Source of the DNA: a bacterium
Lineage (GTDB): Bacteria > Patescibacteriota > Minisyncoccia > Phycocordibacterales > Phycocordibacteraceae
Length of the DNA stretch: 64,000 bases
Assembly (NCBI GenBank): GCA_037200965.1
Contig: JBBCGK010000001.1
Span: 384,001-448,000, forward strand
Direction of reading: 5' to 3'
The notes under the pieces were generated by a model. The model was given only the letters and a program-made list of their open reading frames with translations. It was not told the origin of the DNA and did no database searches. The translations under genes were made by a program, and so were the position numbers. Positions 48,600 to 52,214 of the stretch are shown here, in pieces; positions within the stretch are counted from its first letter, which is position 1; each line of letters begins with the position of its first letter.

Positions 48600-48933
48600 T
48601 TCAGTGCATCGAAAACCTGTAGTCGCGTTCTCTTTTGTTCCGCCTATCCTGCTCCCGCTCAAAGGCTCACGTGTGGCCTTCAAGCGACCGCCGGGTTACG
48701 TTATCCGGCTTCCGTAGCGCGTTTGGGGACGACGCTAATCTCCCACTGTCCTTGCAGACAATATCGACATGATATGCCTTTCGGGCGATATCGGTTCCAA
48801 TTGGATATGTTCCACGAGCAGCTTCCGCTACCCGTGCCTTGTTTCGACTTACTCCCTGTCATTGAGTTTGCCGTAGTCCTGCATACGCAGAATTTCGGGC
48901 ACCCCCAACTCCCTTGAGTTGACGGGCGAATGT

Positions 48934-49824
48934 GATACTTAGGCAAGTTCACGTTCCCACGCAGCGAGCGGATTTCCCGCACTGCGCGAGCCCCCGGCGT
49001 GCATTTTCGATTTCAACACAGCGATCTTCCTAACCCCTTCTTTCGTGTGATGGGCTTTCGCAATCGCGAGCTCGAGGACTTGGTAAAATAGCTCAAAGTC
49101 CTTTACGCGCTTGCTTTCAAGCGGGTGCCTTTTGAAAAAAGGCACCACGACTTGCTTCAAGAGATCGTAGCTGAAGATCTCGAACCGATAATTATCCCGT
49201 TGATTCTTCCGATATTCGCGTTGGAAGTATATCTTTCCGCATCCCCAGAATTTCTGTACTTTCTCAAGAAGAGGAAGTTCGTCTTCCCGCATCTTGATGT
49301 AGTAACGGCACTGCACCCGGTAACTTACCGAGCCATGCTCTTTCTTAGGTGGAAGCAGATAGACACAGAAACTCCCTTCGCCATCGGTCAAACCGACGAT
49401 GTAATCAGCGGATAGCACGCCTGGTTTTGTCCTTCTCGCGTTCTTCTTGTGGAAGAGCGCAATACTACGACGCAGCTGACTCCCAGTGTCTTTTGATTCC
49501 TGCATACCGACATAGTATCAATGAGTTGACACTACGGGTATTCAAGAACCGTTGCCGTTGTGGACAACTGGGTCTCCCCGGGTTACGCATACTTCTATTC
49601 CATACATCCTCTACGGGCCTTTCTTCGGCACCTTCCCTATCCTCACCGCCCACTGATAGGTCGATGCGGCCCTTTTTGTGTACAGGCTGTGTTTTGCTTC
49701 CAGATCCTTCAGTCCATACCTTACGGCATTGGACCTATCTTTCGGCTACGCTCCCCACGACGAGTGAGGAGGAGTGGATTTGAACCACTTAGAACTATGC
49801 GCTGCCGGGCGCATTTATTTGTGA
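48934..49824 (-). mobile_element. intervening sequence (group-I-intron-like, ~890 bp) inserted near E. coli 16S position ~1396 (CTTGTAC|ACATTCGCCCGTCA)
   Basis: Conserved 16S sequence stops after TTGTAC at 49825 and resumes at 48933. The insert encodes a LAGLIDADG ORF. Confidence 0.7.
48939..49505 (-). CDS. LAGLIDADG homing endonuclease (single-motif type)
   Basis: 188 aa with the motif YIVGLTDGEGSF; the ORF ends at the insert boundary. Confidence 0.8.
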   Translation of the reverse strand: MQESKDTGSQLRRSIALFHKKNARRTKPGVLSADYIVGLTDGEGSFCVYLLPPKKEHGSVSYRVQCRYYIKMREDELPLLEKVQKFWGCGKIYFQREYRKNQRDNYRFEIFSYDLLKQVVVPFFKRHPLESKRVKDFELFYQVLELAIAKAHHTKEGVRKIAVLKSKMHAGGSRSAGNPLAAWERELA

Positions 49825-50689
49825 GTACAAGACTCGAGAACGTATTCACCGTAGTATGGCTGACCTACGATTACTAGTGATTCCGGCTTCATGAGGTCGG
49901 TTGCAGACCTCAATCCGTACTGGGGGCGGTTTTCGGGATTAGCTCCACCTTGCGGTCTTGCATCCTTCTGTACCGCCCATTGTAACACGTGTGCAGCCCA
50001 GGGTATCAAGGGACATGCTGATCTGGCGTCATCCCCACCTTCCTCTCCCGTGAGGGAGCAGTCTCGCCTGACATATATAACAGGCAACGGGGGTTGCGTT
50101 CGTTACCCCACTGAAGGGAACAGTTCAAACCACGAACTGACGACGACCATGCATCACCTGTCCAGCACCCTCGAAGGCTCCGTCCCTTTCGGGTCGGATG
50201 CAGCTGGATTTCTAACCCTGGTAAGGTTCTTCGCTTGCCGACGAATTAAGCCACATGTTCCACCACTTGTGCGAGTCCCCGTCTATTCCTTTGAGTTTTA
50301 AGCTTGCGCTCGTACTACCCAGGCGGCTCGCTTATCGCGTTAGCTTAGCCCCACAGAGGGTCGATACTCCGTAGAGCGAGCGAGCAACGTTTAGGGCCAG
50401 GACTACCGGGGTATCTAATCCCGTTCGATCCCCTGGCTTTCGTGTGTGAGCGTCAGGAACGTACCAGTCTATTGCCTTCGCCTTTGGTGTTCCCCATGAT
50501 ATCAACGGATTTCACCCCTACACCATGAGTTCCATAGACCTCTTACGCCCTCGAGCCGTACCGTTTCCCGTGCGGACCGGAAGTTGAGCTCCCGGATTTT
50601 ACGCGAGACTAATACGGCCGCCTTGACACCCTTTACGCCCAGTGATTCCGGATAATGCTCGGGGCCTCTGTATTACCGCTCCTGCTGGC

Positions 50690-51624
50690 CATCGTGTGTG
50701 GCATGCCGCACGGGCATGCCGCTCATATCGCTATGAGGATCGGACTATATCATCACCCACCAATACTGATGGGGCTCGGCGTGTAGTCTCTGAGGGGTCA
50801 AAGTATATATTCCGATGATCAGAAGGAAGCTTGTACCTGAAACAGGGCAGGATGTAAGGGGCGACGGTTCTTGTAAACGCGTCGCGTCCTTCTTTCCCGA
50901 TATACAGTTTCGGATACCGCTTCCCGCGGCACAGCGACAAATAGGTTTTTGCCGCGATGCCGAATCTCTCTAATAACAGCGCTTGCAGTCGCTTCACCTC
51001 CGATTCCGTGAAAGAATCAGTACTGATGTGGTACGCATAATGGGATTTTGCTCGATAATCGAGCCTCCCATCATCCATGAACCACACCGCGAGCGTGAGC
51101 GGCGACCGGAACAATTCGGTGATATTTCCAGGAACGACCTTCTCGCGTCCCGCGTAGAAGATTTTGCGCATGTCTTCGAGGTTCTCGAAGAAACGCGTTC
51201 CGAAATACCACTGTTTCGTATCCGGTCTTTGCTTCGGAGGAGTTTTGACGAGATGCGCGAAGTGACTATAAAGCCACACTACATACTCCTTTCGTTCCTC
51301 CGATTGCTTTACCTGCAATCGGGTGCCTCGATAGCCGTTAAACTCGAGATTTCCATCTCCGAGCATGAGGCCTACGAGCACATCCCGTTGTTGCTTCGAG
51401 AGCGCACAGATCATCTTCACAATTATACTCGACTTCCCTGCTGATTGTCTCTTGGGATCTGATTTTGATTTCAAAGAAATCTAAACCAGACGCAGTCCAC
51501 AAGAGAGTTCCAGCATATAGCCAAGTTTTCGATCTCGATTTCTCGAGAAAGCTGCACGCGGTAACGAACGGTTCGTGAGAACCGTTCGATTTGCTCCAAT
51601 GCGCAGAGCCACCTGCGCACGTGT
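50690..51624 (-). mobile_element. intervening sequence (~935 bp) inserted in the 16S 515-region (AACTCTGT|GCCAGCAGGAGCGGTAATAC)
   Basis: The exon sequence ends at 51625 and resumes at 50689. The flanking universal-primer site reads GCCAGCAGGAGCGGTAATAC rather than GCCAGCAGCCGCGGTAATAC. Confidence 0.7.
50731..51474 (-). CDS. LAGLIDADG homing endonuclease (double-motif type)
   Basis: 247 aa with VGLMLGDGNL and VWFMDDGRL motifs. Confidence 0.8.
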   Translation of the reverse strand: MKSKSDPKRQSAGKSSIIVKMICALSKQQRDVLVGLMLGDGNLEFNGYRGTRLQVKQSEERKEYVVWLYSHFAHLVKTPPKQRPDTKQWYFGTRFFENLEDMRKIFYAGREKVVPGNITELFRSPLTLAVWFMDDGRLDYRAKSHYAYHISTDSFTESEVKRLQALLLERFGIAAKTYLSLCRGKRYPKLYIGKEGRDAFTRTVAPYILPCFRYKLPSDHRNIYFDPSETTRRAPSVLVGDDIVRSS

Positions 51625-52214
51625 ACAGAGTTAGGAGCCCCTTATTCCCCGGGTACCGTCAATTACTTCGTCCCCGGGAAAAGCTGTTTACGTACCTAAG
51701 CACTTCGTCCAGCACGCGGCGTCGCTCCGTCAGGCTTGCGCCCATTGCGGAATATTCTCGTCTGCGGCCTCCCGTAGGAGTATGGGCCGTATCTCAGTCC
51801 CATCGGTGGGGGTCAGCCTCTCAGCTCCCCTAAACGTCGTAGCCTTGGTGAGCCATTACCTCACCAACTAGCTGATATTACGCAGGTGACTCCCGGAGCA
51901 ATAAATCTTTACTCTCGCGAGACCATCGGGAATTACCCAACCTTTCGGCTGGCTATGCCCGACTCCGGGGGATCTCCCTGCGCGTTACTACCTCGTTCGC
52001 CACTGCCCTTGCGGGCCGTTCGACTTGCATGACTTATCCACGCCGCCAGCATTCATCCTGAGCTAGGATCAAACTCTCATTAAGAATAGGCGGAACAAAA
52101 CAAAACATAACTTACAGGTTTTCTTGCACCCCCAAGACCGTGCCGGTCCTGGGGACTTTATTCGTATGTCAGAGAGCAAATAAAACCGGCCCCCTGTGGG
52201 GCAGGTAAAGCCAT

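Follow-up and report, generated by a model that had tools for sequence, protein, structure and literature searches.

The 64,000-nucleotide stretch of contig JBBCGK010000001.1 analysed here (the window; all coordinates below are window positions) contains a bacterial 16S rRNA gene divided into three exons by two inserts. This locus is very probably a functional 16S gene of a Parcubacteria-type bacterium of the candidate phyla radiation (CPR), carrying two mobile self-splicing introns of different classes. By its core elements and covariation the first insert is assigned to the group I introns, whereas the second has the predicted domain structure of a compact, IIC-like group II intron and not of a group I intron; the two inserts thus represent different ribozyme classes. 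The initial annotation, made from the letters of the stretch, had described a 16S gene split by two intervening sequences bearing homing endonucleases, and this overall reading is supported, with related genomes supplying the intron-less alleles.

Results and discussion

Exons of the 16S rRNA gene and sites of insertion

The gene occupies 52084..48800 on the minus strand, which had been left unstated when the 16S gene was rightly called, and its three exons total ~1,458 nt, in agreement with the earlier estimate of a locus of ~3.28 kb with ~1.46 kb of 16S sequence. A single small subunit (SSU) rRNA match was found by Rfam in the 64-kb window. The model SSU_rRNA_bacteria (RF00177), proposed at the outset as a check, confirms the 16S identity with a minus-strand match that falls into two parts, one of 386 bits at 52084..51562 and the other of 775.5 bits at 50828..49773; these span model positions ~1-516 and 517-1399. 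Exon 3 obtained no match of its own in the Rfam scan of the window; this third piece, ~48928..48800, was read directly as CGCCCGUCA followed by helix 44 and then by helix 45 with its GGAA loop, and positions 1400-1542 were assigned by eye and by BLAST to relatives. The exons are as follows.

51625..52084, minus strand: 16S exon 1 (E. coli ~1-516); RF00177, 386 bits; ends ...CUAACUCUGU; junction from loci L084, L115 and L146
49821..50689, minus strand: 16S exon 2 (E. coli ~517-1399); RF00177, 775.5 bits; starts GCCAGCAGGAGCGG, ends CUUGUACUCAC
48800..48928, minus strand: 16S exon 3 (E. coli ~1400-1542); from sequence and relatives; starts CGCCCGUCA; helix 45 intact; tail GGAACAUAUCCAAU

With both endonuclease proteins as probes, 159 related loci (79 from GTDB genomes and 80 from metagenomes; L numbers denote such loci) were gathered and compared by BLAST and regular expressions. 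The relatives are Parcubacteria of the CPR (Kaiserbacteria, Giovannonibacteria, Paceibacterota and others), and the homologous inserts found in them substantiate the tie to the CPR that had been drawn from the sequence. Insert 1 (51624..50690, 935 nt) lies between U516 and G517, in the arrangement ...CUAACUCUGU^...G^GCCAGCAG (carets mark junctions), and alleles without it (L084, L115, L146) read TCCTAACTCTGT^GCCAGCAGGAGCGG. Insert 2 (49820..48929, 892 nt) lies between C1399 and C1400, and alleles without it (L004, L007, L012, L017, L027, L043, L077) read CTTGTACTCAC^CGCCCGTCA. The boundaries are exact because relatives lacking each insert give the predicted junctions. Gaps of ~935 and ~890 bp and a first break near E. 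coli position 515 had been predicted, and they correspond well to the 935- and 892-nt inserts and to insertion after U516. The second break had been correctly placed in the 1396-1400 region, but its proposed form, CTTGTAC^...^ACATTCGCC, was displaced by 4 nt on the upstream side and 5 nt on the downstream side, the true site, CTTGTACTCAC^...^CGCCCGTCA, lying further 3'.

The insert junctions are not an assembly artefact, because two contigs built from run SRR28211700 by a different assembler (Logan) agree with the window at 100% identity over each of the four exon/intron junctions, and dozens of independent assemblies hold homologous inserts at the same sites; an assembly chimera, against which the initial annotation had cautioned, is thus not seen. 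Homologues of both inserts also occur within one 16S gene of a Kaiserbacteria relative (L001). The window also maps to a contig of 960,259 bp, JBBCBH010010897.1 of assembly GCA_037975565.1; its number (10897) suggests that this assembly has many thousands of contigs, and the genome may thus be part of a metagenome or a host assembly and not of a curated bin. Further inserts were observed in related 16S genes (L001-L018 and others) at roughly E. coli positions 70-80, 790-800, 1070-1090 and 1498, with up to five or six inserts per gene (e.g. in L001 and L002).

Intron 1, a predicted group I ribozyme after U516

The elements assigned in intron 1 are listed in the order of the transcript.

50690..51624, minus strand: intron 1, group I, 935 nt, U516/G517; from Intron_gpI alignment, elements P, Q, R and S, and covariation; omega-G at 50690
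51624..51556, minus strand: P1 loop with two extra hairpins; from sequence
51552..51555, minus strand: guide sequence GCAG (P1 3' strand), pairing with exon C513-U516, G·U at U516
51431..51548, minus strand: 5' core; from sequence and covariation
51548..51533, minus strand: P2, GAAA loop
51525..51520, minus strand: P3 5' strand, CUUGGC
51515..51510, minus strand: P4 5' strand, UGCUGG, followed by P5 with an extension
51444..51439, minus strand: P4 3' strand, UCAGCA
51438..51431, minus strand: P6 5' strand, GGG-AA-GUC
50691..50799, minus strand: 3' core; from Rfam alignment, conservation and covariation
50799..50794, minus strand: P6 3' strand, GAC-CCC
50788..50784, minus strand: P7 5' strand, GACUA
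50780..50775, minus strand: P3 3' strand, GCCGAG
50773..50756, minus strand: P8
50747..50743, minus strand: P7 3' strand, UAGUC
50737..50722, minus strand: P9, GCGA loop
50720..50700, minus strand: P9.1, followed by the tail

The Rfam model Intron_gpI (RF00028) matches the insert, scanned alone, with 26.5 bits (E = 1.7e-4), and this weak match still aligns the R element UCAGAGACUACACG and the S element GAUGAUAUAGUCC together with P8 and P9. The P element UAUGCUGGAA and the Q element AAUCAGCAGG are located in the 5' part of the intron. P, Q, R and S are all conserved in a set of 18 related introns of this site (S516 introns), among which P4 shows the compensatory change of GCUGG/UCAGC to GCGGG/UCCGC. 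In an alignment of the core strands from 16 loci with 15 distinct sequences (A5), which was cut by hand around conserved motifs and so favours the proposed structure, helices P3, P4, P6 and P7 are 98.4% paired and eight pairs are changed on both sides, values reached by 0/500 shuffles; slid controls gave 30-49% paired. By inspection, P8 and P9.1 covary as well.

The splice sites have the form typical for the assigned class, with a 5' exon ending in U516 and a terminal G at 50690 preceding G517; a terminal G is present in 19 of the 25 S516 inserts examined. The guide GCAG at 51555..51552 is preferred because it occupies the position homologous to the guide of the relatives, directly 5' of P2, and because exon and guide covary, both in the short pairs CUGU/GCAG, CCGU/GCGG, UCGU/GCGA and ACGU/GCGU and in the longer pairs CUCUGU/GCAGAG, CCUCGU/GCGAGG and UUCUGU/GCAGAA. 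An earlier guide candidate, GCAGG at intron nt 9-13 with a 5-bp P1, was dropped, as it belongs to a hairpin of the P1 loop. The closest 16S relative, L043, has an ORF-less homologue of intron 1 of 275 nt (ORF, open reading frame). P7.1/P7.2-like extensions were observed in some relatives of this intron.

Intron 2, a predicted group II ribozyme between C1399 and C1400

Group I models had been proposed as a check for both inserts; insert 1 does align its core elements to such a model (at the 26.5 bits given above), whereas insert 2 has no group I match at E<=10. Insert 2 is invisible to any group I model because its class is, on the evidence below, group II. Domains I-VI were all identified, including exon-binding site 1 (EBS1).

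48929..49820, minus strand: intron 2, group II (IIC-like), 892 nt, C1399/C1400; domains I-VI identified
49820..49815, minus strand: 5' linker AAAUAA, of variable length in relatives
49814..49810, minus strand: AUGCG, counterpart of the GUGYG motif; NNGCG conserved, directly before the domain I basal helix
49577..49809, minus strand: domain I; from RNAalifold, 33 sequences
49809..49805 / 49581..49577, minus strand: domain I basal helix CCCGG/CCGGG
49642..49647, minus strand: EBS1 loop GGUGAG, complementary to exon CUCAC^C across the junction
49429..49572, minus strand: domains II and III; from alignment A4, with a weak RF01998 match at 49524..49429
49572..49567 / 49487..49482, minus strand: domain II, CCCAGU/ACUGGG, including the annotated ATG at 49505
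within 49429..49572, minus strand: domain III, motif AGUCAGCUGCGUCGUAGUA plus a hairpin, inside the N-terminus of annotated ORF 2
48956..48990, minus strand: domain V, with a 10-bp lower helix, CGC triad, UC bulge and 4-bp upper helix
48932..48952, minus strand: domain VI with bulged A at 48936, 8 nt from the 3' splice site

The assignment is based mainly on covariation. In the 5' 230 nt of 33 sequences, RNAalifold predicted 71 domain I pairs, 63 of them with compensatory changes, and since the domain I basal helix starts right after AUGCG, this pentamer is taken as the counterpart of GUGYG and the preceding AAAUAA as a linker, which is longer in L156 and L158 owing to hairpin inserts. For domain V, 98.5% of the cells in an alignment of 37 sequences are paired and six pairs have compensatory changes; the CGC triad is formed by C-G, G·U and C-G pairs in 32, 31 and 37 of the 37 sequences, respectively. 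The four basal pairs of domain VI are each changed on both sides in 6-17 of the 37 sequences (GUGA/UCAC becomes, for example, AUGA/UCAU, GAGA/UCUC or GCGA/UCGC), and the bulged A is kept in nearly all of these homologues. Taken together, the 23 pairs of domains V and VI are 92.4% paired in the 37 introns, with 14 pairs changed on both sides; the observed percentage and the covariation score were reached by 0/500 shuffles and the 14 changed pairs by 2/500, and slid controls gave 34-43% paired. EBS1 covaries with the exon: CUCAC occurs with GGUGAG, and CACAC with GGUGUG, so that the exon change U1396A is accompanied by an A-to-U change in EBS1 (seven loci: L111, L120, L142, L150, L151, L155, L156).

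Of the Rfam group II models, those for D1D4 gave weak matches to this intron in the window, RF01998 with 19.8 bits and RF02001 with 18.4 bits; the homologous intron of L102 reaches the cut-offs, with 40.1 bits for RF00029 (cut-off 40) and 41.8 bits for RF01998 (cut-off 35). ORF-less versions of 400-480 nt occupy the same site in L008, L014 and L028.

Two site types were observed among the relatives. Type A, to which the window belongs, reads CAC^...AUU^CG. In type B, CA^...AAU^CCG, a homologous group II intron is inserted one nucleotide upstream (A1398/C1399), with A or G standing in the 5' exon in place of its copy of C1399 and with an EBS1 loop, GGUGAGU, that is shortened on the 5' side (L011, L112, L114, L116, L123, L125, L126, L142, L150, L151, L155, L156, L158). 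The register is ambiguous in L150, which has C on both sides, and the insertion of L132 may lie after C1400, a possible third register. In type A and type B alike, the branch-point A stands exactly 8 nt from the 3' splice site. Other splice registers for intron 2 (such as GUACU^CAC... or an end in AU) were rejected, since they add or remove bases of the decoding centre and break this constant distance. A different insert near 1398-1400, beginning with GGUCGCC and ending with AAUAC, is present in L002, L003, L005 and L023.

Endonuclease ORFs and their overlap with the ribozymes

50731..51414, minus strand: endonuclease ORF 1, 227 aa from ATG (247 aa from TTG at 51474), LAGLIDADG_2
48939..49505, minus strand: endonuclease ORF 2 as annotated, 188 aa, LAGLIDADG_1

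Each gap had been said to contain one LAGLIDADG ORF in the orientation of the rRNA, and Pfam matches bear this out. ORF 1 matches LAGLIDADG_2 (PF03161; 1.5e-32, 113 bits) and has two motifs, LVGLMLGDG and LAVWFMDDG, while ORF 2 matches LAGLIDADG_1 (PF00961; 2.1e-16, 61 bits), has the single motif IVGLTDGEGSF and is placed in domain IV. Homologues number 289 for endonuclease 1 and 322 for endonuclease 2, many of the latter being 140-141 aa long.

As shown by comparison with the ORF-less homologue in L043, ORF 1 is located in the P6 loop of intron 1, and its last ~23 codons cross the 3' strand of P6, P7, the 3' strand of P3, P8 and the 3' strand of P7 into the P9 loop. The seemingly conserved peptide DPSET is explained by this overlap, as it is the R element read as protein. 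In ORF 2, the conserved core extends from ~49418 (GTG) to 48996 (...MHA); the N-terminal 29 aa of the annotated frame overlie domains II-III, and its C-terminal 18 aa are encoded by domains V-VI, as the stop that follows MHA in relatives is missing here. The real endonuclease 2 is therefore probably about 141 aa long, starting from the GTG at 49418.

The best solved relative of endonuclease 1 is I-SceI (E = 5e-16, residues 5-199 aligned). The single domain of endonuclease 2 matches either half of the monomers of the I-OnuI/I-PanMI family (2.6e-31), and the protein presumably acts as a homodimer. I-SceI and the I-OnuI/I-PanMI/I-SmaMI enzymes come from organelles; endonuclease 2 is a form of half their size. 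Both ORFs are intact and are predicted to encode active endonucleases. No intron-encoded reverse transcriptase or maturase was found, LAGLIDADG_1 being the sole ORF in intron 2; it is this unusual absence that defines the group II-LAGLIDADG subset.

Proposed splicing and homing

The locus would be transcribed as a single precursor of ~3.3 kb, from which both inserts are expected to be removed in vivo to give the mature rRNA. Intron 1 would leave by guanosine-initiated two-step transesterification, with the GCAG guide paired to C513-U516 and the terminal G used. Intron 2 would leave by group II chemistry, with EBS1 GGUGAG holding CUCAC^C and domain V forming the catalytic centre; its 5' splice site may be attacked by the bulged A of domain VI or by water. 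Both the branching and the hydrolytic pathway are conceivable for intron 2, and hydrolysis is a live option because 6 extra nt separate the exon from the GUGYG-like motif. Ligation of the exons would yield a 16S rRNA of ~1,458 nt with junctions reading CUAACUCUGU-GCCAGCAGGAGCGG and ...GUACUCAC-CGCCCGUCA.... Homing would proceed at the DNA level: alleles without the intron would be cut at the site specific to each endonuclease and would acquire the intron through recombinational repair.

Peculiarities of the 16S sequence

The unusual letters pointed out earlier at the site of primer 515F are indeed present, with GCAGGAGCGG at 50683..50674, and the remark that this primer would fail was correct: its site (515-533) is split after 516 and additionally contains two mismatches. 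GGA at 524-526 pairs with UCC at 505-507 (U-A, C-G, C-G). Among the related loci UCC always occurs with GGA (10/10 loci) and UGC always with GCA (11/11 loci), all fully complementary. Because GGA is compensated by UCC, the 530-loop pseudoknot 505-507/524-526 is kept, the unusual bases reflecting covariation and not damage.

The anti-Shine-Dalgarno sequence CCUCC is absent from the 3' end of the 16S gene, where the tail is GGAACAUAUCC; over 48797..48813 (minus strand) it reads GGAACAUAUCCAAUUGG and not GGAUCACCUCCUUA. The same tail variant occurs in five relatives (L020, L027, L043, L087, L106), and other Parcubacteria loci have many differing tails, some of them canonical. For 42 long ORFs in the window, the sequences upstream of the start codons show neither a Shine-Dalgarno-like enrichment nor a replacement of the GGAUAU type; in these ORFs, the interval -20..-3 has a 4.9-fold enrichment of the 4-mer TATA.

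Position 1498 (48844, minus strand) is A in the window, where U1498 is conserved in nearly all relatives (AAGUCGA^AACAAGG against AAGUCGU^AACAAGG; here the caret marks 1498/1499). The closest relatives, L043, L020 and L027, have an intron of ~920 nt with a LAGLIDADG_2 ORF exactly at 1498/1499, and one may speculate that A1498 is a homing-site scar or an immunity change.

Downstream of the 16S gene, and on the same strand, lie a tRNA gene and then a protein ORF, the two together covering 47634..48310.

48237..48310, minus strand: tRNA-Ile (GAU); ARAGORN; Rfam tRNA, 74.9 bits

No 23S or 5S match was found within the 64-kb window, so the rRNA genes appear to be unlinked.

Alternative explanations

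Several observations weigh against a gene with two self-splicing introns. Intron 1 falls below the gathering score of RF00028 (26.5 against 50 bits), which is explained by the ORF that splits the core and that the model cannot bridge; its P1 in the window is just 4 bp long and faces a competing hairpin, GCGCAG...CUGCGC, in the P1 loop; and the hand-cutting of alignment A5 has been mentioned above. Intron 2 in the window is below the Rfam cut-offs, with no RF00029 match at E<=10. It lacks the canonical 5' G, starting AAAUAA-AUGCG with the 6-nt linker, and its boundaries depart from the GUGYG/AY rule, as the G1 position is A or U and the intron ends in AUU. Among fungal relatives, a linker of this type is associated with the loss of branching (PMC13190283).

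The most serious alternative is that intron 2, or both inserts, are excised without exon ligation, like the 23S intervening sequences processed by RNase III, leaving a fragmented 16S rRNA of ~1,330 nt and a 3' piece of ~129 nt held together by base pairing. Such processing would easily tolerate an insertion point that slides by 1-2 nt among related introns, it would accord with a linker that parts the exon from the 5' motif of the ribozyme, and the CPR survey of Tsurumaki et al. 2024 (PMC11270868) states that intervening sequences of this kind may also occur in CPR bacteria. We nevertheless regard it as unlikely, because a complete covarying group II ribozyme (domain I, exon-matched EBS1, domains V and VI) has been conserved, at a cost that purely endonucleolytic removal would not require; moreover, the junction to which EBS1 is complementary, CUCAC^C, is the ligated one, the bulged A keeps its 8-nt distance from the 3' splice site in both site types, and the break would fall inside the decoding centre. 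Retention of the inserts in the mature rRNA as expansion segments, which the initial annotation had named as an alternative, is highly improbable given that the sites lie in universally conserved cores (the 530 loop and pseudoknot, the 1400 decoding region), that both inserts fold into ribozyme cores with correct splice-site features and that close relatives have precisely intron-less alleles; removal is also shown by published CPR metatranscriptomes, as cited in PMC11270868.

A decaying pseudogene or an assembly chimera might be suspected from the GC content of the inserts (0.47-0.51), slightly below that of the exons (about 0.55), from the tail without anti-Shine-Dalgarno and from the A at 1498. 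This reading is very improbable in view of the exon scores of 386 and 775 bits with the bacterial SSU model, the compensated bases at 524-526, the intact helix 45, the five relatives with the same tail, the contigs of a second assembler identical over the four junctions and the presence of both intron types in the one 16S gene of L001; the gene is also the sole SSU match in 64 kb and is followed by tRNA-Ile as in a normal operon. Finally, the usual carriers of LAGLIDADG genes are group I introns and archaeal rRNA introns, and a short AAUG/CAUU complementarity between the two junctions of intron 2 would suit an archaeal-type bulge-helix-bulge intron. A bulge-helix-bulge structure built on these 4 nt was dropped once domains V and VI and EBS1 had been found. 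Group I was rejected for intron 2 as well: the last base is C in the 5' exon (A in type B) and U in the intron, so that neither a U·G pair nor a terminal G is available, and there is no group I match at E<=10. With group II domains I, V and VI backed by covariation and Rfam group II models matching the L102 homologue at or above their cut-offs, a divergent group I or archaeal-type intron 2 has almost no probability left.

Relation to known rRNA introns

Group I introns at S516 are also found in eukaryotic nuclear SSU rDNA (e.g. in Naegleria), at the same position after U516, and may carry an endonuclease gene; these nuclear introns are members of other subgroups, and their enzymes are of the His-Cys box type. 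In the case of intron 1, by contrast, the host is a bacterium and the ORF in the P6 loop encodes an I-SceI-like LAGLIDADG_2 protein.

Inserts of the kind described here have been known since 2015 and were catalogued in 2024, and the window provides a further example. According to the survey of Tsurumaki et al. 2024 (PMC11270868), which cites Brown et al. 2015 for the CPR rRNA insertion sequences, 48% of 380 CPR 16S genes have inserts, mostly encoding LAGLIDADG endonucleases, and removal of the rRNA inserts from CPR transcripts is reported. Group II-like inserts are given there as occurring solely at 16S position 1400 (site 16IS9), mostly with LAGLIDADG_1 ORFs, and LAGLIDADG_2/3 ORFs as belonging to group I inserts at other 16S sites. 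The window fits this description in site, insert class and ORF family, and the present analysis works out the domain structure, the 5' linker, the pairing of EBS1 with intron-binding site 1 (IBS1) and the exact C1399/C1400 site.

The closest described relatives of intron 2 belong to the rns-1396 family (Salman et al. 2012; Liu et al. 2026, PMC13190283), from Thiomargarita and other Thiotrichaceae, which has an IIC backbone, a 5' linker in all members, no EBS2 and a single-motif endonuclease in domain IV; the missing canonical boundary and the 5' linker are described for this family too (PMC13190283). The Thiomargarita nelsonii intron (FR690945; sequence taken from Table S5 of PMC13190283) is 63% identical to intron 2 over 386 nt and shares with it the first 13 nt, 5' AAAUAAAUGCGCC. 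The rns-1396 introns are inserted at A1396/C1397 (5' exon ...UUGUACA, 3' exon CACCGC) and have the EBS1 loop GUGUGUAC (PMC13190283), whereas in the window the site is ...UUGUACUCAC^CGCCCG (1399/1400) and the EBS1 loop GGUGAG. Judged from these sequences, intron 2 appears to be the rns-1396 ribozyme lineage retargeted 3 nt downstream. The main text of PMC13190283 describes rns-1396 as exclusive to Thiotrichaceae, although its Table S4 contains members from Kazan, Daviesbacteria, Parcubacteria and Saccharimonadota; in our scans, the homologous ribozyme was found at 1398-1400 in more than 45 CPR loci. LAGLIDADG ORFs and 5'-terminal linkers are likewise known from group IIB1 introns of fungal and algal mitochondrial rRNA (PMC13190283). 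These differ from intron 2 by their IIB1 backbone and two-motif endonucleases, and in them the branch-point A has usually been lost where the linker is present, unlike in the homologues of intron 2, nearly all of which (of 37) keep the bulged A.

Conclusions

The findings do not overturn current knowledge; they add the class of the second intron, the exact sites, the overlaps of the ORFs with the ribozymes, the compensation in the pseudoknot and the link to Thiomargarita. In practical terms, this 16S gene would be invisible or badly biased in amplicon surveys, as the 515F site is split and mismatched and the full gene measures 3.3 kb; 1392R/1492R-type amplicons would be longer by 0.9 kb, and annotation pipelines will return 16S fragments, as Rfam did here. 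At this fully assembled locus, one bacterial rRNA gene houses introns of group I and of group II; each lies in a functional hot spot, the 530 loop or the decoding centre, and each has apparently switched to LAGLIDADG homing at the DNA level. Intron 2 adds to the small class of IIC introns with LAGLIDADG genes, which the 2026 survey called essentially confined to Thiotrichaceae, and in the more than 45 loci gathered this ribozyme occupies staggered sites, its EBS1 having changed to match.

We tentatively propose, as an interpretation whose chances we put slightly below even, that one lineage of IIC introns with a single-motif LAGLIDADG endonuclease, common to Thiotrichaceae and many CPR lineages, has "walked" along the decoding centre by co-evolution of EBS1 and exon, through the registers 1396/1397, 1398/1399, 1399/1400 and possibly 1400/1401, while keeping its 5' linker and, unlike the fungal analogues, an intact branch-point A. 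If this is true, the copy in the window would represent retargeting of a ribozyme by single-nucleotide steps within one of the most conserved RNA sites, and transfer of the element between phyla would be indicated.

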